Positions 20,001 to 38,431 are shown, numbered from the stretch's first letter. The stretch: 64,000 nt of DNA from Nitrosopumilus sp. (GCA_963667665.2 OY763927.2:160001-224000), one strand, 5' to 3'. Notes: generated from the sequence alone by a model not told the origin. Numbers and translations are program-made.

Positions 20001-23000
20001 TGATGGCACTTCAATAACACTACACGACAATTCTGGCGGCAGCACCGACAACATAGACCAGCCGTACGCCCCGTTATTTGGAAGCATCCCCATCTCAGGT
20101 GTCTGGACCCTGCAGATACACGACAGGACTGCTCCCGATCCAGGAGTCCTGAACAGCTGGACACTTACCATCAATTACGGCACCACCACCACTGTCAGCC
20201 CCGTTACTGACATCTCAGGTTCAGGTGATGTGTACTATGTGACAGTCTCTGCCACGCAGGACGGCACATACAACCTTGATCTTGTCTCATCAGACCACAA
20301 CATTGTCGATGCTGCAAACAACTCGCTGACCAACACGGCTACCACCGGTGCAGACCAGACATACACCGTCAGTACCGCAGTTATAGACAACACCAACCCA
20401 AGACTTGCATCAATTGAGCGGTACAATCCTGCAACCGAGAATACGGACAACCAGACACTAGTCTACAAGGCAACCTTTAGCGAGGATGTCACGGGAGTAA
20501 CTGCATCCGACTTTGTCCTGTCTCCTAGCAGTACGGGAAGAGTCAGCGGCACCACCCAAGTCACCGGCATCTCAGGCTCCGGCGACACGTACTACGTTAC
20601 AGTCTCCTCATCTACTGACGGAACATACAACCTTGATCTTGTCTCATCAGACCACAACATTGTCGATGCTGCAAACAACTCGCTGACCAACACGGCTACT
20701 ACCGGTGCAGACCAGACATACACCGTCAGTACCGCAGTTATAGACAACACCAACCCAAGACTTGCATCAATTGAGCGGTACAATCCTGCAACCGAGAATA
20801 CGGACAGCCAGACACTAGTCTACAAGGCAACCTTTAGCGAGGATGTCACGGGAGTAACTGTATCTGACTTTACCTTGTCTTCTGACAGTGCGGGGGGAGA
20901 AAGCACATCCACCTCAACTGGACAGTTCACACAGACAAGATCCCCCAATCTTACCATACCTGACCTTGCAACTGTATCTGATACCATCACAGTCCCTGAT
21001 TCTGAAACTGCCACATCCGTCTCAGTTGAAGTAGACATTACGCATAACTACATCGGCGATCTCAAGATAGACATTATTGCCCCTGATGGCACTTCAATAA
21101 CACTACACGACAATTCTGGCGGCAGCACCGACAACATAGACCAGCCGTACGCCCCGTTATTTGGAAGCATCCCCATCTCAGGTGTCTGGACCCTGCAGAT
21201 ACACGACAGGACTGCTCCCGATCCAGGAGTCCTGAACAGCTGGACACTTACCATCAATTACGGCACCACCACCACTGTCAGCCCCGTTACTGACATCTCA
21301 GGTTCAGGTGATGTGTACTATGTGACAGTCTCTGCCACGCAGGACGGCACATACAACCTTGATCTTGTCTCATCAGACCACAACATTGTCGATGCTGCAA
21401 ACAACTCGCTGACCAACACGGCTACCACCGGTGCAGACCAGACATACACCGTCAGTACCGCAGTTATAGACAACACCAACCCAAGACTTGCATCAATTGA
21501 GCGGTACAATCCTGCAACCGAGAATACGGACAGCCAGACACTAGTCTACAAGGCAACCTTTAGCGAGGATGTCACGGGAGTAACTGCATCCGACTTTGTC
21601 CTGTCTCCTAGCAGTACGGGAAGAGTCAGCGGCACCACCCAAGTCACCGGCATCTCAGGCTCCGGCGACACGTACTACGTTACAGTCTCCTCATCTACTG
21701 ACGGAACATACAACCTTGATCTTGTCTCATCAGACCACAACATTGTCGATGCTGCAAACAACTCGCTGACCAACACGGCTACTACCGGTGCAGACCAGAC
21801 ATACACCGTCAGTACCGCAGTTATAGACAACACCAACCCAAGACTTGCATCAATTGAGCGGTACAATCCTGCAACCGAGAATACGGACAGCCAGACACTA
21901 GTCTACAAGGCAACCTTTAGCGAGGATGTCACGGGAGTAACTGTATCTGACTTTACCTTGTCTTCTGACAGTGCGGGGGGAGAAAGCACATCCACCTCAA
22001 CTGGACAGTTCACACAGACAAGATCCCCCAATCTTACCATACCTGACCTTGCAACTGTATCTGATACCATCACAGTCCCTGATTCTGAAACTGCCACATC
22101 CGTCTCAGTTGAAGTAGACATTACGCATAACTACATCGGCGATCTCAAGATAGACATTATTGCCCCTGATGGCACTTCAATAACACTACACGACAATTCT
22201 GGCGGCAGCACCGACAACATAGACCAGCCGTACGCCCCGTTATTTGGAAGCATCCCCATCTCAGGTGTCTGGACCCTGCAGATACACGACAGGACTGCTC
22301 CCGATCCAGGAGTCCTGAACAGCTGGACACTTACCATCAATTACGGCACCACCACCACTGTCAGCCCCGTTACTGACATCTCAGGTTCAGGTGATGTGTA
22401 CTATGTGACAGTCTCTGCCACGCAGGACGGCACATACAACCTTGATCTTGTCTCATCAGACCACAACATTGTCGATGCTGCAAACAACTCGCTGACCAAC
22501 ACGGCTACTACCGGTGCAGACCAGACATACACCGTCAGTACCGCAGTTATAGACAACACCAACCCAAGACTTGCATCAATTGAGCGGTACAATCCTGCAA
22601 CCGAGAATACGGACAGCCAGACACTAGTCTACAAGGCAACCTTTAGCGAGGATGTCACGGGAGTAACTGTATCTGACTTTACCTTGTCTTCTGACAGTGC
22701 GGGGGGAGAAAGCACATCCACCTCAACTGGACAGTTCACACAGACAAGATCCCCCAATCTTACCATACCTGACCTTGCAACTGTATCTGATACCATCACA
22801 GTCCCTGATTCTGAAACTGCCACATCCGTCTCAGTTGAAGTAGACATTACGCATAACTACATCGGCGATCTCAAGATAGACATTATTGCCCCTGATGGCA
22901 CTTCAATAACACTACACGACAATTCTGGCGGCAGCACCGACAACATAGACCAGCCGTACGCCCCGTTATTTGGAAGCATCCCCATCTCAGGTGTCTGGAC

Positions 23001-25440
23001 CCTGCAGATACACGACAGGACTGCTCCCGATCCAGGAGTCCTGAACAGCTGGACACTTACCATCAATTACGGCACCACCACCACTGTCAGCCCCGTTACT
23101 GACATCTCAGGTTCAGGTGATGTGTACTATGTGACAGTCTCTGCCACGCAGGACGGCACATACAACCTTGATCTTGTCTCATCAGACCACAACATTGTCG
23201 ATGCTGCAAACAACTCGCTGACCAACACGGCTACCACCGGTGCAGACCAGACATACACCGTCAGTACCGCAGTTATAGACAACACCAACCCAAGACTTGC
23301 ATCAATTGAGCGGTACAATCCTGCAACCGAGAATACGGACAGCCAGACACTAGTCTACAAGGCAACCTTTAGCGAGGATGTCACGGGAGTAACTGTATCT
23401 GACTTTACCTTGTCTTCTGACAGTGCGGGGGGAGAAAGCACATCCACCTCAACTGGACAGTTCACACAGACAAGATCCCCCAATCTTACCATACCTGACC
23501 TTGCAACTGTATCTGATACCATCACAGTCCCTGATTCTGAAACTGCCACATCCGTCTCAGTTGAAGTAGACATTACGCATAACTACATCGGCGATCTCAA
23601 GATAGACATTATTGCCCCTGATGGCACTTCAATAACACTACACGACAATTCTGGCGGCAGCACCGACAACATAGACCAGCCGTACGCCCCGTTATTTGGA
23701 AGCATCCCCATCTCAGGTGTCTGGACCCTGCAGATACACGACAGGACTGCTCCCGATCCAGGAGTCCTGAACAGCTGGACACTTACCATCAATTACGGCA
23801 CCACCACCACTGTCAGCCCCGTTACTGACATCTCAGGTTCAGGTGATGTGTACTATGTGACAGTCTCTGCCACGCAGGACGGCACATACAACCTTGATCT
23901 TGTCTCATCAGACCACAACATTGTCGATGCTGCAAACAACTCGCTGACCAACACGGCTACCACCGGTGCAGACCAGACATACACCGTCAGTACCGCAGTT
24001 ATAGACAACACCAACCCAAGACTTGCATCAATTGAGCGGTACAATCCTGCAACCGAGAATACGGACAGCCAGACACTAGTCTACAAGGCAACCTTTAGCG
24101 AGGATGTCACGGGAGTAACTGCATCCGACTTTGTCCTGTCTCCTAGCAGTACGGGAAGAGTCAGCGGCACCACCCAAGTCACCGGCATCTCAGGCTCCGG
24201 CGACACGTACTACGTTACAGTCTCCTCATCTACTGACGGAACATACAACCTTGATCTTGTCTCATCAGACCACAACATTGTCGATGCTGCAAACAACTCG
24301 CTGACCAACACGGCTACTACCGGTGCAGACCAGACATACACCGTCAGTACCGCAGTTATAGACAACACCAACCCAAGACTTGCATCAATTGAGCGGTACA
24401 ATCCTGCAACCGAGAATACGGACAGCCAGACACTAGTCTACAAGGCAACCTTTAGCGAGGATGTCACGGGAGTAACTGTATCTGACTTTACCTTGTCTTC
24501 TGACAGTGCGGGGGGAGAAAGCACATCCACCTCAACTGGACAGTTCACACAGACAAGATCCCCCAATCTTACCATACCTGACCTTGCAACTGTATCTGAT
24601 ACCATCACAGTCCCTGATTCTGAAACTGCCACATCCGTCTCAGTTGAAGTAGACATTACGCATAACTACATCGGCGATCTCAAGATAGACATTATTGCCC
24701 CTGATGGCACTTCAATAACACTACACGACAATTCTGGCGGCAGCACCGACAACATAGACCAGCCGTACGCCCCGTTATTTGGAAGCATCCCCATCTCAGG
24801 TGTCTGGACCCTGCAGATACACGACAGGGATGCTCCCGATCCAGGAGTCCTGAACAGCTGGACACTTACCATCAATTACGGCACCACCACCACTGTCAGC
24901 CCCGTTACTGACATCTCAGGTTCAGGTGATGTGTACTATGTGACAGTCTCTGCCACGCAGGACGGCACATACAACCTTGATCTTGTCTCATCAGACCACA
25001 ACATTGTCGATGCTACAAACAACTCGCTGACCAACACGGCTACCACCGGTGCAGACCAGACATACACCGTCAGTACCGCAGTTATAGACAACACCAACCC
25101 AAGACTTGCATCAATTGAGCGGTACAGTCCTACATCCCAAAATACGAACAGCCAGTTCCTGATCTACAAGGCAACCTTTAGCGAGAACGTTACGGGAGTG
25201 ACTGAATCTGACTTTACTTTGTCACCTGGCAGCACGGGAGGGGAAAATAACGGCATCAGTCCGATCATCGGCATCACAGGTTCCGGCGACACATACTACG
25301 TGATAGTTTCCTCAACCGTTGACGGGACATACAACCTTGATCTTGTCTCATCAGACCACAACATTGCAGATGCTGCAAACAACTCGCTGACCAACACGGT
25401 TCCCATCACCGGAATTGATCAGACGTACACAAAGATCTAA
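8095..25440 (+). CDS. Giant (5781 aa) modular surface protein/adhesin: LVIVD-like propeller repeats, PKD, three BspA/DUF285 LRR blocks, 19 DUF5011-like Ig repeats, Ig-like repeats and 7 proprotein-convertase P-like domains
   Basis: Uninterrupted ORF; N-terminal hydrophobic segment; YAAVAA..DGVQILDVTDP repeats; WDVSSVTDMxxMF repeats; DTDAPVIIITG..GQYTVTYDCTD repeats; VDITHNYIGDLKIDIIAPDGT...GVWTLQIHD...GVLNSWTL P-domain. Confidence 0.9.
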   Translation: MNRHLYPQIRTIHVLSVIVVFAISAGILLAAQSGCIGATLAGTDGSYNTPDTGLSEHAPVQAVTAWEGMSNLSVACQIADTFADMLFTGVLDVAYAVHAVLSLTAVDNITDDDISLVLNGASDITTFKLGNHTYAAVAAYANLGVQILNVTDPSNITAAGSIIDMGEETADLELRGARGITTFESGGHTYAAVAAYSSDGVQILNITNPSIITAAGNTADIGTNTDDLELNGARGIATFVSGGHTYAAVAAHLDDGVQILNITDPLHITAAGNITDTDTLELEGASGIATFESGGHTYVAVAAYLDNGVQILDVTDPLHIIPAGNITKIGSNTDDLELNGAYGITTFVSGGHTYAAVAAFLDDGVQILNITDPLHITPAGSIDTSTLKLNGAQDITTFTSGDHTYVAVAANRDNGVQILDVTDPLHIVPAGNIADIGNNNDDLELNRAQGITTFESGGHIYAAVAAFEDDGVQIIRIDIPPDTTSPADAFVTTWRTTSADESITLPLVGTDITINWGDGSTTAGVSTPVDHTYNTAGDYTVQITGGLTWFHLNNAADASKLVSLDQWGTASWASMENAFSGASNMVYNAGDAPDLSGVTDMSNMFDSAAAFDGDLSSWDVSSVTDMNSMFSGASVFNQPLNDWVVSSVTDMSGMFYEASDFNQPLNDWNVSSVTDMSNMFRSASDFNQPLNDWNVSSVTDMSGMFFRASSFNQLLNDWNVSSVTDMHNMFAVARSFNQPLNDWDVSSVASMSNMFHIASDFNQPLNSWNVSRVTNMDDMFNFATAFSQNLGNWYVVANATSIARADVPRVVAEISAQNDHLNGHKPTYGISRDSDYAFFEIVNGNKINMTSVGTKSSYRVNVTASGSNVFEDGNNWRLLEIKVTDQTTDTTPPVIKLEGSSLVTITVDETYTEQGAVCDDDVDADKPATVGGDTVDTSTVGQYTVTYDCTDSSNNEATQVSRTVNVQSAPDTDAPVIIITGSANIQLTVVETYTEQGAVCDDDVDADKPATVGGDTVDTSTVGQYTVTYDCTDSSNNEATQVSRTVNVQSAPDTDAPVIIITGSANIQLTVVETYTEQGAVCDDDVDADKPATVGGDTVDTSTVGQYTVTYDCTDSSNNEATQVSRTVNVQSAPDTDAPVIIITGSANIQLTVDETYTEQGAVCDDDVDADKPATVGGDTVDTSTVGQYTVTYDCTDSSNNEATQVSRTVNVQSAPDTDAPVIIITGSANIQLTVDETYTEQGAVCDDDVDADKPATVGGDTADTSTVGQYTVTYDCTDSSNNEATQVSRTVNVQSAPDTDAPVIIITGSANIQLTVDETYTEQGAVCDDDVDADKPATVGGDTADTSTVGQYTVTYDCTDSSNNEATQVSRTVTVIETGAPFITTWTATDSDKSITLPMKGMYSILWGDGSNSTNVSDSQSHTYSTAGTYTVTVLGDGLEYIRLHGDTANALQLKSIDQWGDTRWTTMHEAFYGARNMVYNATDTPDLSLVTDTSYMFDSATAFDGDLSSWDVSAVTNMNRMFFGASSFNQTISSWDVSAVTDMHRMFYEASDFNQPLNDWDVSSVSEMGSMFYQAADFNQPLNAWDVSSVTDMSDMFDFATSFNQPLNSWDVSKVTNMFGMFSSASSFNQTLNSWDVSSVTDMSYMFFGASSFDQPLNNWNVSSVTDMTSMFEGATSFNQPLNRWNVSSVIGVGMIFMFHNADDFDQNLGNWYVVANATSIARADVPRVVAEISAQNDHLNGHNLTYGIGRDNDYAFFEIVNDNKINMTSVGTKSSYRVNVTASGSNVFESGNNWRLLEIKVTDQTTDTTPPVIKLEGSSLVTITVDETYTEQGAVCDDDVDADKPATVGGDTVDTSTVGQYTVTYDCTDSSNNEATQVSRTVNVQSAPDTDAPVIIITGLTNIQLTVDETYTEQGAVCDDDVDADKPATVGGDTVDTSTVGQYTVTYDCTDSSNNEATQVSRTVNVQSAPDTDAPVIIITGSANIQLTVVETYTEQGAVCDDDVDADKPATVGGDTVDTSTVGQYTVTYDCTDSSNNEATQVSRTVNVQSAPDTDAPVIIITGLTNIQLTVDETYTEQGAVCDDDVDADKPATVGGDTVDTSTVGQYTVTYDCTDSSNNEATQVSRTVNVQSAPDTDAPVIIITGLTNIQLTVVETYTEQGAVCDDDVDADKPATVGGDTVDTSTVGQYTVTYDCTDSSNNEATQVSRTVNVQSAPDTDAPVIIITGSANIQLTVDETYTEQGAVCDDDVDADKPATVGGDTVDTSTVGQYTVTYDCTDSSNNEATQVSRTVNVQSAPDTDAPVIIITGLTNIQLTVVETYTEQGAVCDDDVDADKPATVGGDTVDTSTVGQYTVTYDCTDSSNNEATQVSRTVNVQSAPDTDAPVIIITGSANIQLTVDETYTEQGAVCDDDVDADKPATVGGDTVDTSTVGQYTVTYDCTDSSNNEATQVSRTVNVQSAPDTDAPVIIITGSANIQLTVDETYTEQGAVCDDDVDADKPATVGGDTVDTSTVGQYTVTYDCTDSSNNEATQVSRTVNVQSAPDTDAPVIIITGLTNIQLTVVETYTEQGAVCDDDVDADKPATVGGDTVDTSTVGQYTVTYDCTDSSNNEATQVSRTVNVQSAPDTDAPVIIITGSANIQLTVDETYTEQGAVCDDDVDADKPATVGGDTVDTSTVGQYTVTYDCTDSSNNEATQVSRTVNVQSAPDTDAPVIIITGSANIQLTVDETYTEQGAVCDDDVDADKPATVGGDTVDTSTVGQYTVTYDCTDSSNNEATQVSRTVNVQSAPDTDAPVIIITGLTNIQLTVVETYTEQGAVCDDDVDADKPATVGGDTVDTSTVGQYTVTYDCTDSSNNEATQVSRTVIVQTAVTPRITLSADAFITTWRTDSANQTITIPVGGSTARYSIDWGDNSPAETDITGDSTHTYREADSYTVSISGGLERFYLDGQQPNAGRLASIEQWGDTKWTTMNGAFDGAANMVYRATDAPNLSGVINMSGMFGGASSFNGDLSSWDVSSVTDMSDMFFEASSFNGDLSSWDVSAVTNMSSMFDNAYDFNGNLSSWDVSAVTDMSNMFFYAISFNQPHNDWDVSSVTDMSRMFAGAISFDRPLNSWNVSAVNDMRGMFQTASSFNQPLNSWNVSAVTNMKRMFNSASSFNGNLGNWYITLDNASVTGILQAVGNITPQNEFLATHEPTYGIGSSSDSEHFGINGAALVLMTIPDANPAIVNITSTGDFGTSNSRIFEITILPGVADTTNPRLASIERSSPTSQNTDSQSLIYEVTFSESVTGVTSSDFILSLVGSNAGIGSITGISGSGSVYYVTVSAAQDGTYNLDLVSSGHGIRDAANNLLNNTTPTTGTDETYTVSTAVIDNTNPRLASIERYNPATENTDNQTLVYKATFSEDVTGVTASDFVLSPSSTGRVSGTTQVTGISGSGDTYYVTVSSSTDGTYNLDLVSSDHNIVDAANNSLTNTATTGADQTYTVSTAVIDNTNPRLASIERYNPATENTDSQTLVYKATFSEDVTGVTVSDFTLSSDSAGGESTSTSTGQFTQTRSPNLTIPDLATVSDTITVPDSETATSVSVEVDITHNYIGDLKIDIIAPDGTSITLHDNSGGSTDNIDQPYAPLFGSIPISGVWTLQIHDRTAPDPGVLNSWTLTINYGTTTTVSSVTDISGSGDVYYVTVSATQDGTYNLDLVSSDHNIVDAANNSLTNTATTGADQTYTVSTAVIDNTNPRLASIERYNPATENTDNQTLVYKATFSEDVTGVTASDFVLSPSSTGRVSGTTQVTGISGSGDTYYVTVSSSTDGTYNLDLVSSDHNIVDAANNSLTNTATTGADQTYTVSTAVIDNTNPRLASIERYNPATENTDSQTLVYKATFSEDVTGVTVSDFTLSSDSAGGESTSTSTGQFTQTRSPNLTIPDLATVSDTITVPDSETATSVSVEVDITHNYIGDLKIDIIAPDGTSITLHDNSGGSTDNIDQPYAPLFGSIPISGVWTLQIHDRTAPDPGVLNSWTLTINYGTTTTVSPVTDISGSGDVYYVTVSATQDGTYNLDLVSSDHNIVDAANNSLTNTATTGADQTYTVSTAVIDNTNPRLASIERYNPATENTDNQTLVYKATFSEDVTGVTASDFVLSPSSTGRVSGTTQVTGISGSGDTYYVTVSSSTDGTYNLDLVSSDHNIVDAANNSLTNTATTGADQTYTVSTAVIDNTNPRLASIERYNPATENTDSQTLVYKATFSEDVTGVTVSDFTLSSDSAGGESTSTSTGQFTQTRSPNLTIPDLATVSDTITVPDSETATSVSVEVDITHNYIGDLKIDIIAPDGTSITLHDNSGGSTDNIDQPYAPLFGSIPISGVWTLQIHDRTAPDPGVLNSWTLTINYGTTTTVSPVTDISGSGDVYYVTVSATQDGTYNLDLVSSDHNIVDAANNSLTNTATTGADQTYTVSTAVIDNTNPRLASIERYNPATENTDSQTLVYKATFSEDVTGVTASDFVLSPSSTGRVSGTTQVTGISGSGDTYYVTVSSSTDGTYNLDLVSSDHNIVDAANNSLTNTATTGADQTYTVSTAVIDNTNPRLASIERYNPATENTDSQTLVYKATFSEDVTGVTVSDFTLSSDSAGGESTSTSTGQFTQTRSPNLTIPDLATVSDTITVPDSETATSVSVEVDITHNYIGDLKIDIIAPDGTSITLHDNSGGSTDNIDQPYAPLFGSIPISGVWTLQIHDRTAPDPGVLNSWTLTINYGTTTTVSPVTDISGSGDVYYVTVSATQDGTYNLDLVSSDHNIVDAANNSLTNTATTGADQTYTVSTAVIDNTNPRLASIERYNPATENTDSQTLVYKATFSEDVTGVTVSDFTLSSDSAGGESTSTSTGQFTQTRSPNLTIPDLATVSDTITVPDSETATSVSVEVDITHNYIGDLKIDIIAPDGTSITLHDNSGGSTDNIDQPYAPLFGSIPISGVWTLQIHDRTAPDPGVLNSWTLTINYGTTTTVSPVTDISGSGDVYYVTVSATQDGTYNLDLVSSDHNIVDAANNSLTNTATTGADQTYTVSTAVIDNTNPRLASIERYNPATENTDSQTLVYKATFSEDVTGVTVSDFTLSSDSAGGESTSTSTGQFTQTRSPNLTIPDLATVSDTITVPDSETATSVSVEVDITHNYIGDLKIDIIAPDGTSITLHDNSGGSTDNIDQPYAPLFGSIPISGVWTLQIHDRTAPDPGVLNSWTLTINYGTTTTVSPVTDISGSGDVYYVTVSATQDGTYNLDLVSSDHNIVDAANNSLTNTATTGADQTYTVSTAVIDNTNPRLASIERYNPATENTDSQTLVYKATFSEDVTGVTASDFVLSPSSTGRVSGTTQVTGISGSGDTYYVTVSSSTDGTYNLDLVSSDHNIVDAANNSLTNTATTGADQTYTVSTAVIDNTNPRLASIERYNPATENTDSQTLVYKATFSEDVTGVTVSDFTLSSDSAGGESTSTSTGQFTQTRSPNLTIPDLATVSDTITVPDSETATSVSVEVDITHNYIGDLKIDIIAPDGTSITLHDNSGGSTDNIDQPYAPLFGSIPISGVWTLQIHDRDAPDPGVLNSWTLTINYGTTTTVSPVTDISGSGDVYYVTVSATQDGTYNLDLVSSDHNIVDATNNSLTNTATTGADQTYTVSTAVIDNTNPRLASIERYSPTSQNTNSQFLIYKATFSENVTGVTESDFTLSPGSTGGENNGISPIIGITGSGDTYYVIVSSTVDGTYNLDLVSSDHNIADAANNSLTNTVPITGIDQTYTKI
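8420..9520 (+). repeat. About six degenerate beta-propeller (LVIVD-like) repeats
   Basis: Recurrent GGHTYAAVAA...DGVQIL(N/D)(I/V)TDP, 55-60 aa period. Confidence 0.7.
9880..10470 (+). repeat. 75-bp BspA/DUF285 LRR repeat block 1
   Basis: GTCACCGACATG...ATGTTC...TTCAACCAGCCCCTCAAC..TGG units at 25-aa period. Confidence 0.85.
10760..12225 (+). repeat. Tandem array of 6 near-identical 246-bp (82 aa) Ig-like units
   Basis: Antisense shadow ORFs recur at 10808, 11054, 11300, 11546 and 11792 (246-bp spacing), plus a last unit. Confidence 0.92.
12560..13230 (+). repeat. 75-bp BspA/DUF285 LRR repeat block 2
   Basis: Same 25-aa consensus as block 1. Confidence 0.85.
13520..16710 (+). repeat. Tandem array of 13 near-identical 246-bp Ig-like units
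   Basis: Shadow ORFs from 13571 to 16523 every 246 bp. Confidence 0.92.
17080..17600 (+). repeat. 75-bp BspA/DUF285 LRR repeat block 3
   Basis: Same 25-aa consensus as blocks 1 and 2. Confidence 0.85.
17865..25437 (+). repeat. Array of 357-bp (A, Ig-like) and 726-bp (B, Ig-like with inserted P-domain) units; core order ABABABABBBAB plus divergent first and last units
   Basis: P-domain copies marked at 18654, 19737, 20820, 21903, 22629, 23355 and 24438 (spacings 1083 x3, 726 x2, 1083). Confidence 0.88.
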
Positions 25441-25500
25441 AACCTTGTATAATCGCCTAATATTTTTAACCCCACACGTCCTGTAAGGGGTTATCTATGT

Positions 25501-25720
25501 CAGAAGTTGAAAATGTGCTCCGTAAATGGATTTTTTGCTCATAATCTCATAATCTAATTGATATTATTTTTTGATATACGATGCTAAATGTTCAAAACTT
25601 AACCAGTTAACATGTCAAACCAGAAAAACGAACAAGGTTTCCGGGACATCGTTACGAAAGAAGAATTCAAGGTCTTGTATGACGCGTTGGAATATGTAAA
25701 TATACCATTTTCAACAGACA
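25501..25720 (+). mobile_element. Left-end remnant of an ISH3/IS4-like element related to the one at 36217-37562
   Basis: CAGAAGTTGAAAATGTGC matches the terminal repeat at 36216; MSNQKNEQGFRDIVTKEEFKVLYDAL is homologous to MSGQKNEWSFQDNATKKEFKILYDAL. Confidence 0.75.
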
Positions 25721-25769: not shown

Positions 25770-26162
25770 ATGGACAAGGTGTACAGGGAGGTAGGCAAGA
25801 TGGTCCTGATACTAGACAAGGCACCGTGGCATATATCCAAGGAGACGAAAAGATTCTTTGCAGAGCGCGACATTATTGTCCTGTGGTATCCTATCGGACA
25901 TCCATATCTGAATCCCGTAGAGGAAGTATGGAGCGTACTCAAACGTGTAATGAATCATTCCATACGTTATGCAGACAAGGATGCACATCTGGCAGCAGTG
26001 TATGAATTTATCAGGGTACACAAGTTTGATTATAATTTTAAGAAATTCTGGAAGAGAAAACCGCCCAAAGGAATCATGCGGCCATTCATAAAGATGGATG
26101 ATCCGCCAAATCCCGACATTGTATCACACCAGGTATCGTCTAAACCTGCACAAAAACAATGA
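25770..26162 (+). pseudogene. IS630-family transposase, C-terminal fragment
   Basis: VLILDKAPWH ... PYLNPVEEVWSVLKR DDE motifs; N-terminus missing. Confidence 0.85.
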
Positions 26163-26336: not shown

Positions 26337-27056
26337 ATGTACAGAAACTTATGCACGTTGCTATACATGTTGCTAAACGCCGCAGATTATGGAGCACCAC
26401 AAATTAGAAAGCGCGCATTTATTGTCGGATCAAAGAGCGAAATTCCAATTGAACCCCCCGTACAAACACACGGATCAAAGGAAGATTTGAAAAAGAACCC
26501 TGCACTTTTGCGACACCTGAAACTGATTGAGGCAATAGATGACCTCCCAACAATTAGAACTGGAAACATTACATCAAACACTGATGATTACCTCCCAAAA
26601 TCAAACCCATTTCAGGTTGAAATGAGGAAAAAATCGGCCAAAGTCAAGGATCACATAGTAACAAAAAATTCTTCTCTTGTGATTGAGAGGATAAAGGCTG
26701 TTCCACCAGGAGGCAACTGGGAAGACATACCACGAAAGCTTATGCAAGTTGATGGAAAGTATAGCAGGATTGAAAAGGCTCACAGTATGATATACAAAAG
26801 ACTCCGCAAAAATGAGCCAGCAATTACAATTACAAACTTTAGGAAAGGAATGATGATTCATCCAACGCAGAACAGGTTGTTTTCTGTTAGGGAAGCTGCA
26901 AGAATTCAAACGTTTCCTGATGATTATGTCTTCAAAGGAGGACTAAGTTCAAAACAACAGCAAGTAGCTGATGCAGTGCCAGTAATGCTTGCAAAAAAAG
27001 TATCCGAATCTGTCTTGAAACACCTCCATCAGGTAATCAAAATAGCATCTGTTTAG
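26337..27056 (+). pseudogene. C5-cytosine DNA methyltransferase, 5'-truncated
   Basis: Motifs VIII (LNAADYGAPQIRKRAFIVG), IX (RLFSVREAARIQTFPD) and X (QVADAVP) present; FxGxGG, PC and ENV absent. Confidence 0.88.
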
Positions 27057-28857: not shown

Positions 28858-29330
28858 GTGATTTCTAGGATCCAACTTTTTAGTATGAACTTACGAACAG
28901 TTTCAGTGACTAGTCTTACTTTCTATGGAGGAGTAAATGAGATTGGAGGCAACAAAATCCTACTCCAAGACAAAGATACCAAGGTTTTTCTTGATTTTGG
29001 AATGAGTTTTGGCAAACGTGGGGATTATTTTGATACGTTCATGGGTCCAAGAACTGCCACTGGATTACGTGATTTTATAGAAACTGGGTTGATTCCTGAC
29101 TTGGATAGAGTTTATCGTAGTGATTTAATGGAGATGATGGGAAAAAGAGAAACAGATACTGACATTGATGCAGTACTGTTAACTCATGCACATGCAGATC
29201 ATGCTGACTACATTTCATTTTTGCACGAAGATATTCCAATCTACATGGGAGACACCTGTAAACTAATACTGGAAGCTATACGTGAACGTGGACAAAGAAG
29301 TTTTGAAAAAGAAATTCTAGCATACACATC
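28858..29330 (+). pseudogene. MBL-fold (RNase J/beta-CASP-like) hydrolase, N-terminal fragment
   Basis: FYGGVNEIGGN, LDFG, THAHADH; truncated by a transposase remnant. Confidence 0.8.
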
Positions 29331-29588
29331 AAAGATATTCACTTTAAACATCAATTATCTAACAACAATATTCAAGAACGTCTTAATGGTGAATTTAGAG
29401 ACAGAGAAAAAACCTTTAGAGGTTTGAAAAAGGATGATTCGCCAGCCATTACAGGAATGAAACTATACCACAATTACATCAGACTTCACATGAGTTTAGA
29501 TGGTGATACACCAGCTAAGAGAGCAGGAATTGAGATAAAGGGAGATAACAAGTGGATTACTATCATTCAGAATGCTAGTGAAAAATAA
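29326..29588 (+). pseudogene. DDE (IS6-like) transposase C-terminal remnant
   Basis: Manual translation NNNIQERLNGEFRDREKTFRGLK...YHNYIRLHMSLDGDTPAKRAGIEIKGDNKWITIIQNA*. Confidence 0.75.
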
Positions 29589-30949: not shown

Positions 30950-32149
30950 CACTGTGCTTATCTGAAATACATACGGGAAGACATTACAGTTTACTGTTCC
31001 GAGGAATCCAAGCTCATCATGCAGAATTTTGACGAGACTGGAAATGGTGAGCAGTACTTGGATTTGACAGAAAAGTTCCAAATTCATGAAGGCAAAAGTG
31101 GTTCTACCAAGGGAAAAATGGTAAAAGAGAAGGGCGTTAAGATTCCAAGAGATGTCCGAGTCTTCAAAAGCGGCGAGGAGATCAATTTGGATTCAATTGT
31201 GGTCACCCCGATGCCAGTTGATCATTCAATTTCTGGAGTTCACGGATTCGTCCTAGAAACCTCAGACGGCATGATTGCCAATACGGCCGATCTCAGATTC
31301 CACGGACGCCGCAAGAAAGACACAGAAAACTTTGTCAAAAAATGTGCCGAGTCTTCCATCGATATCCTACTGTGTGAGGGCACCAGGATCGACAAGCAGT
31401 CCACGATGACCGAGTTTGACGTAGAAAGCAAAGTTACCGAAATCGTACGAACCACGAAAAACCTAGTAGTTTGTGGATATCCAATACGGGATCTGGATCG
31501 ATTGCAGTCGTTCTATCTTGCCGCAAAGGAAACCGGAAGGTACCTGGCAATCGAGCCAAAACAGGCGTATCTTTTGAAACTATTTGCAGAATCTGAAAAC
31601 CTCCAAGGGCTGTACCCGGATCCACAGGACAAGCACATCATGGTGTATATGCCAAAGGGAGAATGGGGTCTGATTGACAAGAACCTTAATCACTTTACCG
31701 AAAAGCTGCTGAATGAAGATTATCAGGTTTGGGCTCGAGAATTCTTGAATTATGACAACCGTATTGATTACCGGGGTGTCCGGGAGAAACAGGGCGAGAT
31801 AATGCTATCCCTGAGTGACTTTAAACTGCAGGAATTAATCGACATTCGACCTAATACTGGTTCAAGCTACATACGGTCCTTGACAGAACCCTTCGACATG
31901 GAAATGGAGTTGAAAGAAGAGAGAATAAAGAACTGGTTTGAGAGATTCGGACTTTTGTCAAATGAAAAGGAATGGCACCAAATCCATGTTTCTGGACACG
32001 GCGACGGCACGCAAATAAAATCCATCATTGAAGGGGCCAATGCTAAAAAACTGATTCCGATCCACACCTCGCCCGAGAATGAAATCTATCATGAAAGGTG
32101 GCACGGCAACGTACATTCTGCACGCCTTGGCGACTCTGTAGCCTTGTAA
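30950..32149 (+). pseudogene. Second MBL-fold (RNase J/beta-CASP-like) hydrolase, 5'-truncated
   Basis: PVDHS, TADLRFHG, LLCEGT, HVSGH, LIPIHT; in-frame upstream sequence HCAYLKYIREDITVY reaches only to the end of the HxHxDH motif. Confidence 0.8.
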
Positions 32150-32412: not shown

Positions 32413-33159
32413 TTATACTAAGAACTTTGAAGCGTTTTTCCCTTCCTGAGTAATTTTTATCCATCTATTCCTTCCAATTTTCTCAATTTTAATGAATTGC
32501 CATTTTTCTAAAGGTCTGATTATATTTTTGTCAAGACTGGCAAATCGCACCATCGAATGATTGTCTCTATTTGTAGGATTGACTGAAATCAGATTCTTTT
32601 TTTCTGCAAGTTCTGCCATCTTCTTTTTTGTAATTTTTCCCTTCTCTGTTGTAATTATTCTCAGAGCACCGATCAATTTAGAATCGGGAATTTTAATAGA
32701 GTATGTAGGAACATTTTGAATCTCTTTTATCCCTAGGGATAAAGGTTTTTCCGCCTCAAATCCAGGATAGTTTTCTGCCTCTACATAAAACGGGTGAACG
32801 TTGGAGTCATCATTGAACATCATGCATGCCATCATTATTCCTATTGCCTGAATCTTTGATCCCGATGCCAAATTGGCATAGATGTCGTTTCCCTTTTCTT
32901 CTTCTATGATGTTTTTTACTGCACGAATAATTTGAAACAGATCATGTCTGTCATGTGATTCTTCATCAGTTTTAATTCCCAGTCTCTTTAATTGACTTGT
33001 TATCCTTGTGATAAATGGCCCTGCCTTGTCATCGCTTTTATTTTTATGAACCAATAGTCACACCTTGTCTGCTTTTTCTTGTTTTGCAGGAAGGACCACC
33101 CTGTCAATCTCAAATCCTACAGGGGCAATCTGCACACGTAGTTTTGCAATTCTAGTCAT
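32413..33159 (-). pseudogene. DUF6293/HFX_2341-like (CARF-like plus winged HTH) transcriptional regulator with in-frame TGA at codon 34
   Basis: ATG 33159: MTRIAKLRVQIAPVGFEIDRVVLPAKQEKADKV*LLVH..., then NLASGSK and C-terminal wHTH (LEKWQFIKIEKIGRNRWIKITQEG); stop at 33058-33060. Confidence 0.8.
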
Positions 33160-33224
33160 GATAGTATCTAAGGTATGCACACTATATACATAATATATAA
33201 TAATTTCTCAAATCTAGATAATTT

Positions 33225-33449
33225 ATGAAGCAAACACAAAATATGGCACTAAACTCTTGTGTCGTAGTTGACATTACAGCGAAACTAAAAGTAGCCCTGA
33301 AACTCAAAGCACATGTTAAAAGCAAATCAATCAAGAGCATTCTGTGCGATGCTGTATCAGATAATGTACATCGTGTACATGGTTACTTGCCTGAAAAAAT
33401 AACTGCCAAAGCTGCTTCTTCATATCTTTTGCATGGTGGTATACAGTGA
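33225..33449 (+). CDS. Small putative ribbon-helix-helix protein upstream of the Ubl operon
   Basis: VVVDITAKLKVALKLKAHVKSKSIKSILCDAV strand-helix-helix pattern. Confidence 0.4.
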   Translation: MKQTQNMALNSCVVVDITAKLKVALKLKAHVKSKSIKSILCDAVSDNVHRVHGYLPEKITAKAASSYLLHGGIQ

Positions 33450-33471
33450 TTTTTTACCGGACACACTCAAA

Positions 33472-33479
33472 GGAGGTGA
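33472..33479 (+). promoter_or_regulatory. Shine-Dalgarno GGAGGTGA for the Ubl gene
   Basis: Perfect archaeal SD 6 nt before TTG 33486. Confidence 0.75.
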
Positions 33480-33485
33480 TAAATA

Positions 33486-33749
33486 TTGGAAGATAAACAC
33501 GATACAAACATAACAATTCTTATTCGTACGCCACAAAAACCTTGGGAACATGAATTCAAGTCAACTACTACGATAAAGCAAGTGATTGAAGACATTGTAA
33601 AACATTTTAGTTTTGCACCAAATGGCACATATGAGCTGAGATTAAAGACGGACGAAGATAATCCGCTAGAGCCAGACAAGACTTTGGAAAATTATGGAAT
33701 AAAGGATGGAGCCATCGTAATTTTCACCGATCTTGGAGTTGCCGTATGA
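33486..33749 (+). CDS. Ubiquitin-like beta-grasp protein (BilA-like) with C-terminal extension after Gly
   Basis: ITILIRT...TTIKQVIEDI...LEPDKTLENYGIKDGAIVIF resembles the ubiquitin fold; ends ...TDLG-VAV. Confidence 0.8.
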   Translation: MEDKHDTNITILIRTPQKPWEHEFKSTTTIKQVIEDIVKHFSFAPNGTYELRLKTDEDNPLEPDKTLENYGIKDGAIVIFTDLGVAV

Positions 33750-34219
33750 CTGTTCCGCCGGCTACTTCTTTGTTAATTGCACAGCATGAGATTAATGATG
33801 CAAAAAATAATCCTGTGTTGAAATTAGTGACATTTTCTGAATTTAACAAAGAAGAACTTGCGCTTACAGTAGAGATGCAGTCAAAAATTGATCAAGAAAG
33901 GTACATTCTCAAAATAGAATTTGATAATTACAAGGAATGGCCACTTCTCTTAGAATTTATCGATCCCTCAACCGGGAGGGAAGGAACAAAGCCTGCTTAC
34001 CCAAAATGCAATGACAGTTTTTTTCACTCCTATCCGTGCATCTGTAACCCGTGTTCGAGAAAATCGTATAGCTCATATTCGGGAATCCACAACAACTGGA
34101 ATCTTGTAGGCTGGAAACAAAATCCACAAGTTAGCAGTTTAACCAATTTACAATCTATACTTCAAGCAATCTACTTTCGAATAAACACTAAAGGACGCTA
34201 TAAAGGAAGAATGGCTTGA
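33746..34219 (+). CDS. E2-like conjugating enzyme (BilB-like)
   Basis: YILKIEFDNYKEWPLLLEFIDP...FFH..PCICNPCSR UBC-like pattern; ATGA overlap with the Ubl gene. Confidence 0.72.
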   Translation: MTVPPATSLLIAQHEINDAKNNPVLKLVTFSEFNKEELALTVEMQSKIDQERYILKIEFDNYKEWPLLLEFIDPSTGREGTKPAYPKCNDSFFHSYPCICNPCSRKSYSSYSGIHNNWNLVGWKQNPQVSSLTNLQSILQAIYFRINTKGRYKGRMA

Positions 34220-34767
34220 TCAGAGATATGTTGTCAATATCTAAGAAAACGTCTAGACTAAAAGACAGAAAAAAATATCTAATTTCTTCCAAAGTCATCA
34301 GGGACACTGAGAAGGTTTTACAAGACTATGCTTGTAAAAGTCCGCCTAATGAGGGCCTGATCTATTGGGCCGGGGAAATTTCAGATAATGTGATTAGTAT
34401 AACAGCAGTAATAGCTCCAAACACAGAATCTGATTCGTACCGTGTGTCAACATCACACAAAGATAACTTTCATGTGGTAAATGAATTGAATGAACTAAAA
34501 CTAGTAGAGGTGGCACAAGTTCATTCGCATCCCGATTACTGGGTGGATCATTCCTATGGCGATGACAAATGGGCAGCCTTCAAATTTGGGGGATTGCTAT
34601 CCATTGTAGTTCCAAATTACTGCAAGGAAGGAATGCTGCCGCTAGAAAAATGCGGCATTCATCGTTACAAAAAGAGAGGGTTTGCCCGTCTTTCAATAAA
34701 GTATGTAAAAGAACACTTTCAATTGATTGATCGCACAGACTCAAAATTTGTGGATTTGAGAAGATGA
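34216..34767 (+). CDS. JAB/JAMM (MPN+) metalloprotease, Ubl-processing/deconjugating (BilC-like)
   Basis: EGLIYWAG ... QVHSHP..VDHSYGDD = E-xn-HxH-x7-S-x2-D. Confidence 0.9.
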   Translation: MIRDMLSISKKTSRLKDRKKYLISSKVIRDTEKVLQDYACKSPPNEGLIYWAGEISDNVISITAVIAPNTESDSYRVSTSHKDNFHVVNELNELKLVEVAQVHSHPDYWVDHSYGDDKWAAFKFGGLLSIVVPNYCKEGMLPLEKCGIHRYKKRGFARLSIKYVKEHFQLIDRTDSKFVDLRR

Positions 34768-36176
34768 ATATTCCTCTAACTCGTGATCAATGGTATGAAA
34801 CAAGAGATGATAGAACAAGGAGAATAACAACGGGAGATTTTGAGAATCATGCAGTAGGTATTGTGTTAGATCCAAATTGCAAAGATCTGTTTTCCCACCA
34901 ATGCATGGCCTACATAGTGTGCAATATCATGCCAAGATGGTGCAGAAGACTGGTAATAGACTTGCCTGACGTAGAAAGCATCATACCCCGATATCGTCAT
35001 CAAGAGTTTAAGGAAGTCATAAAGAACTCTGTAAATTCCATTGATCCGTACGGTGATTTTCAGTTTGATAGAATTGATGATAGCAAGGTTGATCAGATAC
35101 TAGTGATAGGAGATCATGAAAAAACTTATTCCAAATCCACTGTATGGATAGACGCAAACGGTTGGATTGCAGGATGCGGGGCAAATTCTAACAAATACAA
35201 ATTAGCCCATAACCATAGCTATAATCCTATAGGTCCTTCTTTTGCATCATGTTTGGGGGCAGCGCAGATATTCGAACAGGCCGTATGCAATAATCGTAGT
35301 GTGGAATATCAAAAATGGCTAAGCTTGTTTGACTTTGACACGTCAGAACACGATCCATCCAAACTGAAGAATCCTGAATTTTCTACAGATTTTGATTATG
35401 GAACCATATATCAGATAGGATGTGGTGCCGTTGGCTCTTCGTTAGACGCCCTCATCTCCCTGACCGACTGGAAGATGGATCTGAGGTTGATTGATAACGA
35501 TGCTGTAGATTATTCTAATTGCAATAGATCCCTGCCGTTTTTGCCATGTGATGCATTACAGGAAAAACTCAAAGTCGATGTGTGCAGTCAAGTACTTGAA
35601 AATAAGAATCGACATATCGCTGCTATTCCTAAAACATATTACGAGTTTACAGGCGAAGAATCGCTTGAAGGTAATCCTGATATCATTCTTTCACTTGCAA
35701 ACGAGGGCAATGTTTGGTCAACTATCCAGGATAATTATCCGCCAATAGTAATTCATGCGGCAACTACTCAAAGCTGGGGAATTAATCTTGGCCGGCACAT
35801 CCCCAGATCCGAATGGTGTGTCATGTGTACTTTCTCAAAACATGTTAATCCATCGTACAAACCCAAATGCGATACAGGAGAGATAACTGCTGAAAATTTG
35901 CAGCCTGTTTTTGGCGTTTTGCCATTTTTATCCCCCGCCGCTGCAGTACTAGTATTGGCAGAGATGTCAAAACTCCAATTTGAAGAGTATCCAATTAACT
36001 ATAATTTCATTGATTTTTCTATGAAAGCACCATTCAATTTTGAACCTGGTCAAAGGAGGCCTGTACAAGGTTGTGAATGTCGTAAACAACAATCTGAAAT
36101 TTATGATCAGTTACACGGTGATTCAAAATTTTGGAAGTTTTGTAAAAAAATCGAATTTAGCGATATGAAATCGTGA
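34764..36176 (+). CDS. E1-like activating enzyme (ThiF/Uba family) with N-terminal inactive-like domain (BilD-like)
   Basis: GCGAVGS, DNDAVDYSNCNR, KVD, CVMC, candidate catalytic Cys in KPKCDTG, C-terminal CEC; ~200 aa N-terminal extension. Confidence 0.88.
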   Translation: MNIPLTRDQWYETRDDRTRRITTGDFENHAVGIVLDPNCKDLFSHQCMAYIVCNIMPRWCRRLVIDLPDVESIIPRYRHQEFKEVIKNSVNSIDPYGDFQFDRIDDSKVDQILVIGDHEKTYSKSTVWIDANGWIAGCGANSNKYKLAHNHSYNPIGPSFASCLGAAQIFEQAVCNNRSVEYQKWLSLFDFDTSEHDPSKLKNPEFSTDFDYGTIYQIGCGAVGSSLDALISLTDWKMDLRLIDNDAVDYSNCNRSLPFLPCDALQEKLKVDVCSQVLENKNRHIAAIPKTYYEFTGEESLEGNPDIILSLANEGNVWSTIQDNYPPIVIHAATTQSWGINLGRHIPRSEWCVMCTFSKHVNPSYKPKCDTGEITAENLQPVFGVLPFLSPAAAVLVLAEMSKLQFEEYPINYNFIDFSMKAPFNFEPGQRRPVQGCECRKQQSEIYDQLHGDSKFWKFCKKIEFSDMKS

Positions 36177-36216
36177 ATTTTTGAGCAAGATCTATGTTGC
36201 AATTTTTTACAATGTC

Positions 36217-37562
36217 AGAAGTTGAAAATGCACCCCTATCGTACACACTGTAAATAGTATTCTAATTCCTTGTCTGTTGATTTTATGATCCTCTTGGCCA
36301 ATACAATGAGCCGCACCAGGAATGCACTAGCTGCCATATTTTTTTTGGCATGCCGCTCAAACTTGATCTTTAACACCTTGTTTATTTTTCGCACTGCCGT
36401 ATACCACAGGTTGCACACAATCATAGAGAGAAAGAACATAAAGACTCTGATCGCATGATTTCGACTGCATGTGCGGGCACGCATCTGCTCAACTGATTTG
36501 AAGTTGTTCTCTATACGCCATCGCTTTTTGTATTCTTCAGGAACATCTTTTATGGTGCGTTTTATGTACCAGCGTTCCACATTTGTGGCATACATCAGAT
36601 ATTCCCATCTTTTCTTACCCTTCTTTTCCTTAAGACGCTTTTTTATCACCAGCCAAAACCTGAACGCTGTTCGTCATTGGATCTCATCTCATATTGAGAT
36701 ATTGCCTTTCTTTTGCCACTGCGAAACTCTGAGACGACCTTTTTGATTTCAGGTGTCTTGCTGACTGCCATCAGGAATCTCTCGCCACATTCGTCCAGAA
36801 AACGCATCACATCTACACTGCTAAACTCGCGGTCCATGAGAATTATTGACTTTTTTAATCCCGTCTTCCTTGATTCTGAGAGCAGTTTACGCACAAATTC
36901 GATCTTTGAGACGTCCTCTGTGACGCGTACGACCGCTATCGTGGGCAGCTGCTCTTCGGTAACTATCTGCATTGTGGCATACGTCTCAAACCGTGATGTT
37001 CCTCCCTTGGGCCTGCCGCTGATTACAAGGCGGTCATTGTGCCTGTCTGCGCCTGTAAATGGGATCAGATGTTTGTCTATGGCCAGCATGTGACCTGTCT
37101 TTCTCTCAAGACCGGATCCTTCCTTGATCGTACTTTCTAACATGCGTCTGCACAGGGCATCCATCTTGTCGGGATCCATCGCACCTATCATTCCCAGCAG
37201 CCACTGGGATGTTGGGATACTGACGTTCTTGTCATCTCTGAGTGTGATTGACATCTCTGTCACGGCCCTGTTGGCAGTAGTTCCGTTCTTGCACATGTGC
37301 AGCAGAACCAGGACGGCATCCTCAAGACCGTACACGGCGTTATGCTCTGTTGAGAAGGGCAACTTTGCACACTTCAACGCATCATACAAGATCTTGAATT
37401 CTTTTTTTGTAGCATTGTCTTGGAAACTCCATTCATTTTTCTGGCCTGACATGTTAACCAGTCAAATCTTGATCTTTTGGCCCCAGATGTCAAAAAACTA
37501 TGTGAATTATCTTGTGAAATTATGCACAAAAAACTTGCTTATGGGGTACATTTTCAACCTCT
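36217..37562 (-). mobile_element. ISH3/IS4-like insertion sequence with frameshifted transposase (36646-37452 plus 36236-36649)
   Basis: 20-bp TIRs AGAAGTTGAAAATGCACCCC / AGAGGTTGAAAATGTACCCC (18/20); LAID, LMDREF, YKKRWRIENNFK motifs; no clear TSD. Confidence 0.85.
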
Positions 37563-37631: not shown

Positions 37632-38431
37632 CTATATCAGGGCCTCCTGCATGACACGCTCACGGGCTATCTGGCAGTATTCTTCCGATATGTCTATTCC
37701 AATATAATTGCGCCCCAACAGCTTGGCCATCTTTAGTGTGGTACCACTCCCGCACATCGGGTCAAGCACGACATCTCCAGTGAAACTGAACATTTTCACG
37801 CACCTGCGGGCTATCTCGGTTGGCATCAGGGCAGGATGCTCCCGTAAGACTCGTTCCTTTTGTGCGGTACCGAGATATTCCAGACCTGTCTGGTGTAATC
37901 CAGCCACTCCTTTTTGGACAGCTTGCTCTGTTCCTTCTCTTCAATGCTACGTTTTTTTGGAATGCCATCCTTGACATATACAGTGATGTACTCGACGGTG
38001 TTTTGCGCGTACAGATTCCCTGGAAACGGATAGCTTCCAAGCATGAGGGTTTTTGTCGGGTTTGGGCGGGCCCAGATGTAGGTGTCGTACAAGTACAGGC
38101 CAGTATCGTGGATTATGGAATGTTGTATAGCAGAATTTATGTCATAGATGTGGCGGTTGTGGTGCGTGTCAAACGCGTCCTTGGCGATAGGCATTGATGG
38201 CGCATTGATTACCAGTTTGCCGTTTGGTACCAATACACGCTGACACTGTCGCCACACCTCCAAAAGTTTGGAGATATAGGAATCAAATACGTGTATGTTG
38301 CCGATCTGGTCTTCTTCACTGCTATACGTCTTGACATCAAAGTATGGTGGGGATGTGACTATCAGATCTACAGATTCAGCGGGCATGCCGGGCATTATAT
38401 CTGCACAGTCGCCACAGATTATCTTATTCAT
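37632..38431 (-). pseudogene. Beta-class amino-methyltransferase (likely N4-cytosine), frameshifted
   Basis: IVTSPPY in 37826-38431; HPA..P and VLDPMCGSGTT in 37632-37907; frame change near 37840. Confidence 0.85.

Follow-up and report, generated by a model that had tools for sequence, protein, structure and literature searches.

A complete ubiquitin-like conjugation operon related to bacterial Bil systems in an ammonia-oxidising archaeon

Ammonia-oxidising archaea are globally important nitrifiers, and to our knowledge their defences against viruses are poorly known. Could one of them tag viral proteins with a ubiquitin-like protein, as the antiphage Bil systems of bacteria do? The question is raised by four adjacent genes at positions 33486-36176 of a 64,000-nucleotide stretch of a Nitrosopumilus sp. 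genome (OY763927.2:160001-224000; hereafter the window, with positions counted from its first letter), which encode a ubiquitin-like protein (Ubl), an E2-like protein, a JAB/JAMM metallopeptidase and an E1-like activating enzyme. The genome (1.89 Mb, 2 contigs) encodes an archaeal AmoA (390 bits), so the host is an ammonia-oxidising archaeon, as had been supposed in an earlier reading of the window from its letters (the sequence-only reading). We consider it fairly probable that the four genes constitute a complete, apparently functional Ubl conjugation operon of the Bil superfamily, part of a distinct, horizontally spreading clade with a probable role in virus defence.

On the plus strand, four intact open reading frames (ORFs) follow one another in the order Ubl-E2-JAB-E1, and the ORF reading and the junction letters (ATGA, TTGA and ATGA) agree on a 4-nt start/stop overlap at each junction (Table 1). 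The overlaps and the Shine-Dalgarno sequence lie where the sequence-only reading had put them. Its description of the four products, namely a ubiquitin-fold protein, a UBC-like protein with a cysteine cluster, a JAMM protease with a complete E-HxH-S-D motif and a 470-aa E1 with GxGxxG, CxxC/CxC and a lone candidate catalytic cysteine, was likewise borne out by the profile searches, structure models and alignments described below. As a separate observation, the 5' part of the E2 gene contains a 32-nt imperfect inverted repeat (33765-33854, plus strand; 75% complementary, 26 nt apart), which may be due to chance.

Table 1. Features of the conjugation operon and its surroundings, in window coordinates.
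Feature	Position	Strand	Remarks
Shine-Dalgarno sequence GGAGGTGA	33471..33478	+	7 nt ahead of the Ubl TTG start; direct reading
Ubl (BilA-like)	33486..33749	+	87 aa, TTG start, one beta-grasp domain
E2-like protein (BilB-like, DUF7665/CEHH-related)	33746..34219	+	157 aa, ATG start
JAB/JAMM metallopeptidase (BilC-like)	34216..34767	+	183 aa, TTG start
E1 (BilD-like)	34764..36176	+	470 aa, ATG start
Divergent intergenic region, presumed promoter/operator	33160..33485	.	inferred from gene arrangement only
HFX_2341/DUF6293-type regulator gene (Csa3-like Rossmann + winged helix), broken	32413..33159	-	divergent from the operon
DDE_3 fragment	25770-26162		
C5 cytosine methylase gene	26337-27056	+	lacks the first 138 model positions
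Metallo-beta-lactamase fragment	28858-29427	+	
Beta-CASP/RMMBL protein gene	31019-32149	+	matches positions 100-249 of the 546-position RNase J model
Insertion sequence with DDE_Tnp_1 transposase	36212-37562 (ORFs 36236-37452)		transposase split in its catalytic domain (268-aa + 137-aa ORFs)
N6/N4 DNA methylase gene	37632-38431	-	split into two ORFs within the domain

The Ubl passes the Pfam cut-offs for both YukD (33 bits, cut-off 27; E = 1.1e-7) and ubiquitin (25.9 bits, cut-off 25.4; E = 8.6e-6). It is also matched by the PADLOC model for BilA (E = 2.7e-4, 19.4 bits), with the match falling on the second beta-grasp domain of that model. The C-terminus of the protein reads ...TDLG84-VAV, and a glycine followed by 3 to 5 residues ends the Ubl both in the window and in 13/13 related loci listed. 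Such tails fit obligatory trimming by the JAMM peptidase, and they agree with the demonstrated processing of the Type II BilA precursor (Chambers et al., bioRxiv 10.1101/2023.09.26.559546). We predict the Ubl to be a precursor that is trimmed after Gly84.

The E2-like protein has no match in Pfam, NCBIfam, PADLOC (including BilB) or the sequences of the PDB. Its AlphaFold2 model, built from 20 homologues (predicted local distance difference test score, pLDDT, 89.3), adopts a UBC fold, and the assignment of 33746-34219 to a UBC-like protein survives with it. The top Foldseek matches of the model are the two BilB chains 8tz0_C/D. VIA-align gives a Z score of 12.8 against 8tz0_C (root mean square deviation 2.8 Å over 133 residues, 22% identity), the next-best structures being eukaryotic UBC E2s at Z 9.6 or lower. 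The cysteine cluster reads P-C98-I-C100-N-P-C103. All three cysteines are invariant among the 20 close homologues, whereas in a 9-sequence alignment the E2s of Nibrella, haloarchaea and Mesorhizobium keep only the C100 position; for this reason Cys100 is most likely the catalytic residue, with Cys98 and Cys103 as clade-specific extra cysteines. The same alignment preserves an H115-x-[ND]-W motif in every row, Type I Bil included, which in the window is His115-x-Asn-Trp.

The relatives of this E2 lead to the same family. Searching recovered 20 homologues among 26 candidates at E<=0.001, and a profile built from these 20 matched 180 representatives at the same threshold. Among the best 150 of the 180, 29 match PADLOC's BilB weakly (best E = 4.5e-10), two are E2-JAB fusions that match BilC (P0145 and P0220), and no other PADLOC family is matched at E<=0.001. 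Pfam DUF7665 touches 6 of the 20 homologues. The Atlas clusters nearest to the E2 carry DUF7665 together with Metal_CEHH, although Metal_CEHH does not match the window protein itself.

For the JAB protein, the best PDB sequence match is the BilC deubiquitinase of Ensifer aridi (8tyx_B; E = 1.5e-5, 28 bits), and PADLOC's BilC model also recognises it (3.2e-6, 24.8 bits); Pfam Prok-JAB matches at 4.2e-4, under its cut-off. The five canonical JAMM residues (E46, H103-x-H105, S113 and D116) are present and identical in all 18 sequences of an alignment that comprises the window, 11 clade loci, Candidatus Nitrosotenuis, three haloarchaeal sequences, Mesorhizobium and one Type I system.

The E1 is named ThiF by Pfam (6e-9) and matches PADLOC's BilD at 3.7e-11 (40.4 bits, model positions 33-284 of 453), and BilD is also its best PDB sequence match (7.5e-4, 21.7 bits). 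At E<=0.001, 344 homologues were found among 6580 candidates. The NCBIfam ThiF/MoeB equivalogs reach only 11-18 bits against cut-offs of 159-510. An AlphaFold2 model from a 32-sequence alignment (pLDDT 85.8, predicted template modelling score 0.91) retrieves BilD 8tyz_A first in Foldseek (E = 2.3e-26, template modelling score 0.73 over 526 columns) and then UBA7, UBA6 and UBA1 (E from 1e-14 to 1e-11). Because the model resembles BilD and then these enzymes, the E1 is, as modelled, a two-domain protein, its N-terminal adenylation domain inactive and its C-terminal one active, and no MoeB-type homodimer; it groups with BilD and the canonical two-domain E1s, and not with the sulfur-transfer enzymes ThiF and MoeB.

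Key residues of E. aridi BilD have counterparts in this protein. The nucleotide-binding motif is G219-x-G-x-x-G224, Arg255 aligns with the adenylation residue Arg246 of BilD, and the zinc half-sites C352-x-x-C355 and C437-x-C439 reproduce its CxxC + CxC pattern. Cys369 is the sole cysteine between the half-sites and the candidate catalytic residue. It is conserved in 13/14 aligned rows, spanning the window clade, the haloarchaeal and Mesorhizobium proteins and three Type I systems; the remaining row, locus L033, is gapped there. The surroundings of this cysteine differ from those in E. aridi: 82 residues part C355 from C437 as against 148 between C343 and C491 in BilD, Cys369 sits 14 residues past the CxxC as against 74, and residues 353-384 are modelled as a short helix (353-356) plus two strands, with no helical domain. 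The E1 would thus bear its catalytic cysteine on a short crossover loop.

Much of what can be proposed about the pathway follows the biochemistry of the E. aridi system. There, BilC cuts BilA after Gly97, BilD adenylates that glycine (Arg246) and forms a thioester through Cys417 on a helical Cys domain, its CxxC + CxC zinc site supports E2 binding, and BilB Cys138, with His151, hands the Ubl to lysines (Chambers et al.). By homology, the JAMM peptidase in the window would remove Val-Ala-Val from the Ubl precursor and expose Gly84, which the C-terminal adenylation domain of the E1 (GxGxxG 219-224, Arg255) would adenylate. Cys369, on its short loop near the Cys352/355/437/439 zinc site, would take the Ubl as a thioester and pass it to a cysteine of the E2 (most probably Cys100, next to His115), from which target proteins would receive it on their lysines. 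The same peptidase that trims the precursor may also take the Ubl off again. Following Type I Bil, virion proteins would be the ones tagged, in defence against viruses. We infer all enzymatic steps, the targets and the antiviral role by homology to the Bil systems of E. aridi and Collimonas. The proposed cascade is well supported by modelled structures and conserved residues; an antiviral role is plausible by analogy.

How, then, does the operon relate to the systems already described? Four co-directional genes of the same composition and order make up BilABCD (Chambers et al.; Gong et al.), as the sequence-only reading had recognised. Its label of a Bil-like system stands insofar as three of the four proteins find their best PDB match, by sequence or structure, in a Bil protein, and the suggested Foldseek comparison places BilD and BilB at the top for E1 and E2; the operon nevertheless falls outside both described Bil types, in a clade of its own.

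The likeness is greatest to Type II Bil (CEHH or '6C' operons; E. aridi, PDB 8tyx-8tz0), which provides the closest solved structures for the E1, the E2 and the JAB protein. Shared features are the Ubl-E2-deubiquitinase-E1 order, a single beta-grasp Ubl with residues past the reactive glycine (up to nine in Type II), an E1 with inactive and active adenylation domains and a CxxC + CxC zinc site, an E2 with a candidate catalytic cysteine and a downstream histidine, and, in bacterial members of the clade, association with CapH/CapP. However, the sequences are only marginally similar (E1 21.7 bits, JAB protein 28 bits), no helical Cys domain of some 80 aa is inserted in the crossover loop of the window E1, and archaea are among the hosts of the window clade. 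The E2 also departs from the CEHH spacing C-x5-E-x-H-x4-H: none of C98, C100 and C103 is followed by a Glu at +6 or a His at +8, and 15 residues separate Cys100 from His115.

With Type I Bil (ISG15-like, Collimonas sp. OK412), the operon shares the four proteins and their order, the conserved E1 cysteine aligned with Cys369 and the H-x-[ND]-W motif of the E2. By contrast, Type I BilA comprises two beta-grasp domains with a C-terminal Gly, where the window Ubl has one domain and ends in G-VAV, and the four zinc cysteines are absent from Type I BilD. Type I E1s score 393-566 bits against PADLOC's BilD over positions 5-451 (5 matches among 401 sampled alphaproteobacterial genomes), compared with 40 bits for the window E1 and 54-66 bits for two bacterial clade members; one Type I E1 had no PDB sequence match to Type II BilD. 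Given these scores and that missing match, the window clade appears to be about as far from each Bil type as those types are from each other. No E. aridi-like Type II E1 was found in the 401 sampled alphaproteobacterial genomes, which held just Type I-like and intermediate forms, and a plasmid search gave one Rhizobium match.

A quick maximum-likelihood tree of 48 E1s, with SH-aLRT support only and no full Type II sequence among them, recovers the window clade as monophyletic (38 rows, support 97). Its sister group consists of three haloarchaeal megaplasmid E1s and a Mesorhizobium plasmid E1, and Type I is reached across the longest internal branches; long-branch warnings apply to Type I and to loci L033 and L036. 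Within the clade, a 14-row subgroup (support 96) holds the window, a Thaumarchaeota metagenome-assembled genome (MAG) and a copy in Candidatus Nitrosotenuis aquarius. The haloarchaeal operons (Natrinema zhouii NZ_CP084885.1, Halomarina sp. PSR21 and Haloferacaceae archaeon XH8), whose genes are annotated as hypothetical, Mov34 or ThiF, have the same four-gene order and are 26-28% (E1) and 32-34% (E2) identical to the window; they differ in belonging to a separate clade, in their Ubl tails (GKGASE, GGV and GKGAGR) and in E2s that keep only the Cys100 equivalent. We conclude that the operon belongs to a distinct clade of the Bil superfamily that is neither Type I nor Type II.

Other Ubl systems are further removed. 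SAMP/UbaA is not known to include an E2, and the Caldiarchaeum-type operon carries a RING E3 and an Rpn11-like peptidase. The sequence-only reading had seen no RING E3 here, rightly so for the neighbours scanned: none of the ORFs of 50 aa or more scanned at 25.7-46.6 kb matched a RING family. Bub ('6E'/DUF6527) has fusions (Ubl-E2, JAB-E1 or E2-E1) and a DUF6527 serine protease (Gong et al.), whereas the four proteins in the window are separate and a Pfam scan of 24 window ORFs gave no match to DUF6527. Cap2 of the Cap2/Cap3 pair in Type II cyclic-oligonucleotide-based antiphage signalling systems is an E2-E1 fusion that acts on a CD-NTase (Chambers et al.). What Bub, Cap2/Cap3, SAMP/UbaA and the Caldiarchaeum/Asgard systems all share with the window is E1-type adenylation of a C-terminal Gly, in some cases with an E2 and a JAB protein.

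The clade is by no means confined to this genome. In the species-genome collection we count 14 true loci, with hosts that include a Thaumarchaeota MAG, several Bacteroidota, an Actinomycetota MAG and a deltaproteobacterium. Together with two loci from a scan of the class, 14/16 have four genes in the same order; the JAB and E1 genes are broken at locus L013, and L014 is fragmentary at a contig edge. The values for L001 and L025 are identical, and the two are probably one MAG. Loci L015-L021 of the genome collection were dropped from the counts because they share only a GCGAVGSS-type pattern, with 27-28% identity over residues 149-279; the only one inspected (L015) is a dehydrogenase-like ORF. 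The complete four-gene order is also found at 32 of 51 metagenome loci, and of the 19 that remain, 17 break off upstream at a contig end, one lacks an E1 ORF at the end of the locus, and one (L069) has 1.4 kb of upstream sequence without detectable partners. Family variants comprise L052, where the JAB and E1 matches fall in one fused ORF (989-2938), and L012, which encodes a 180-aa Ubl with an N-terminal extension (1530-2072).

Three Nitrososphaeria carry the clade with the same gene order, among them Ca. Nitrosotenuis aquarius (genome 1.7 Mb, single contig), whose E1 is a "hypothetical protein" in the public record. The E2 frame of this species (L024, 3410-3892, minus strand) runs open from immediately past the stop codon of the Ubl gene, with no ATG, GTG or TTG until codon 43, suggesting either an unusual start or the loss of the N-terminal helix.

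Archaeal Bil-like systems have already been counted in print, and the clade is widespread and common in metagenomes. Single-Ubl-domain, ISG15-like subtypes are reported in 2.6% of genomes by Millman et al., and a census preprint records ISG15-like systems in one archaeal taxon. Our literature searches turned up no publication on an operon of this kind in Nitrososphaeria or Thaumarchaeota. The parts and their order are known already.

Within the class, the E1 occurs in 3 of 401 sampled genomes, this one included, and in 0/83 other genomes of the same genus. The operon lies in an island (25.4-39.9 kb) of 38.7% GC, compared with 32.5-34.6% in the flanks, and copies of an insertion sequence (IS) mark both island ends. 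A 19-nt stretch recurs exactly at 25497 and 36212, and 217 nt at 25502-25718, a fragment of a related copy 10.7 kb upstream of the IS, are repeated in inverted orientation at 37346-37562. Owing to this patchy distribution, raised GC and IS-bracketed setting, the operon is probably a horizontally acquired accessory cassette. The island boundaries show no direct repeat of the tRNA-Gln gene, and two peptide patterns retrieved no relatives from the viral contigs of IMG/VR. A single 5781-aa ORF of 51% GC, foreign-looking in its roughly 33% GC surroundings, lies directly upstream of the island (8095-25440, plus strand).

Is the cascade, if functional, an immune system? The sequence-only reading had placed it in a defence island, a description that fits the bacterial relatives better than the window. 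We scanned 114 flanking ORFs (>=180 aa) at 26 clade loci, some of them close relatives, with PADLOC. CapP lies upstream in 11 of the 26 loci, and other PADLOC families at E<=1e-8 are found in 16/26, namely Wadjet JetC/JetD, DrmD, dCTPase, IetA, DruA, restriction-modification subunits, Cas4, TniQ/TnsC and PDC candidates. At the Nibrella locus, an HTH_3 + Peptidase_M78 pair is directly upstream, and this CapH/CapP arrangement has been linked to immune operons (Chambers et al.). In the window itself, the island is decayed and IS-flanked, and every recognisable defence-related neighbour is broken, which is why the defence-island argument rests on the bacterial relatives.

The non-immune alternative is that the cascade works but tags host proteins in a stress response or in quality control, its mobility being that of a useful accessory trait. 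We regard this as unlikely. It agrees with the view of Gong et al. that Type II Bil and Bub may be stress-response pathways, with the finding that CapH/CapP-type regulators respond to DNA damage (Chambers et al.), a trigger not confined to viruses, with the lack of any intact defence system adjoining the operon here, and with the presence of only winged-helix regulators upstream of the probable archaeal loci L001, L046 and L057. Yet where the target of a Bil system is known, in a single case, it is a phage tail fibre, and Escherichia coli gained protection from five Type I operons (preprints of Millman et al. and Hor et al.); moreover, relatives in the clade adjoin Wadjet, DISARM, Druantia, restriction-modification and Cas genes, and the distribution within the class is very patchy.

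The operon might instead be an inert passenger, a recently acquired cassette that is unexpressed or unused in a decaying island, an option to which we assign a low probability. The stretch recurs across 7 studies (20 runs in all), including one labelled as a sponge metagenome; its contigs are identical in the runs of two studies and about 1% different in those of two others. In the operon, 26 single-base differences were listed (another 125 across the 3.8-kb stretch lie outside this listing), of which 14 are synonymous and 12 are not, with no stop or frameshift among them. In a single minor contig, one nucleotide is missing at 35848 and one is added at 35852, so that the frame is restored within 4 nt. 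Such a passenger would be in keeping with the 12 non-synonymous differences, with the nearer IS end only 36 nt past the E1 stop and with the seven neighbours that are truncated, split or stopped, the likeliest regulator gene included. However, the four ORFs, their overlaps and the Shine-Dalgarno sequence are intact, all catalytic residues are kept, strains about 1% apart from two further studies show no stop among the listed differences, and full-length proteins 69-79% identical to those of the window occur on other contigs. The sequence-only reading had taken intactness as a sign of selection; four intact ORFs are indeed what we see, but the 26 differences, nearly half of them non-synonymous, do not establish selection within the species.

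That the genes form a sulfur-carrier (ThiS/MoaD + ThiF/MoeB) or SAMP/UbaA-type system with no E1-E2 cascade is scarcely credible: Pfam names the E1 only 'ThiF' and its relatives appear in public records as 'ThiF family adenylyltransferase', but the NCBIfam equivalogs score far under their cut-offs, the E1 is modelled as a two-domain pseudo-dimer closest to BilD and then UBA1/6/7, its gene is translationally coupled to those of a UBC-fold E2 and a JAMM peptidase, and the Ubl matches ubiquitin and YukD, not ThiS or MoaD.

Several points nonetheless weigh against a functional Bil-type defence operon. Models of the PADLOC kind would not call it: the suggested PADLOC check did return BilA, BilC and BilD, but at 19-40 bits, and nothing for BilB. 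The E1 is without the helical Cys domain of E. aridi BilD, and the loop that carries Cys369 is modelled at low confidence (pLDDT 52-67). Of the 26 listed strain differences, 12 change a protein, and with another 125 outside the listing the strain data are weak evidence of constraint. As noted, the recognisable defence genes next to the operon are all broken in this genome, and the counts from the bacterial relatives stand without a background control. The sequence-only claim of a Bil-like antiviral system is therefore upheld for the Bil-like operon, while its antiviral part stays a matter of analogy and of the context of bacterial relatives; for Type II Bil and Bub, Gong et al. describe targets and roles as unknown and point to stress responses as a possible alternative to immunity. 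Finally, a stop in the adjacent putative regulator means that the operon could be silent or deregulated.

This regulator gene, divergent from the operon, matches Pfam HFX_2341_N (9.9e-21) and DUF6293_C (7.4e-19) and PADLOC CARF3 (2.6e-58), and in read-through translation it is interrupted by an in-frame TGA at 33058-33060 (codon 34). In Haloferax, the HFX_2341 family is reported to act as a Csa3-like repressor and to reduce cas transcript levels. Ahead of the Natrinema plasmid operon, in the corresponding divergent position, lies an intact homologue (32% identity, 5.7e-40), whereas a BLAST search with the read-through regulator found nothing at the 2 other haloarchaeal, 15 genome and 51 metagenome loci. 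In the flank of Ca. Nitrosotenuis, which lay outside that search, neither the ORF list nor a Pfam scan of three upstream ORFs contained a DUF6293 protein. We treat the apparent association of regulator and operon as a lead and not as a rule; if the regulator represses the operon, the TGA would leave the operon on here. A sigma-70-type scan of the divergent intergenic region gave fewer sites than shuffled sequences, a type of scan that is not applicable to archaea.

A bolder reading would make the clade a third Bil type, characterised by a single-domain Gly+3 Ubl, a DUF7665-type E2 with a cysteine cluster and a short-loop zinc E1. It would have crossed into archaea and provide antiviral innate immunity there after rewiring from CapH/CapP to winged-helix regulators, including Csa3-like HFX_2341/DUF6293 repressors, and may be constitutively on here because of the TGA. 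We offer this extension tentatively and think it more doubtful than the functional Bil-superfamily operon itself. Antiviral Ubl tagging has been shown for only one bacterial Bil type, so that a functional archaeal relative would extend it to archaea and their viruses. In addition, a smaller E1 that does without the Cys domain offers material for the question of how E1 hands over to E2, and the mixed bacterial and archaeal distribution bears on the origin of E1-E2 cascades.

The remaining neighbours (Table 1) are mostly relics. That most are pseudogenes, as the sequence-only reading had it, holds for the most part between 25.7 and 38.5 kb. For the two methylases, we recognised no restriction enzyme partner. 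As a candidate partner of the operon, we also considered a metallo-beta-lactamase of the kind found in '6A_MBL' systems, and rejected it since the beta-CASP gene and the metallo-beta-lactamase fragment are not conserved beside the relatives. Further downstream, on the minus strand, a tRNA-Val(CAC) gene at 47127-47223 is, at 97 nt, long enough to contain an intron.

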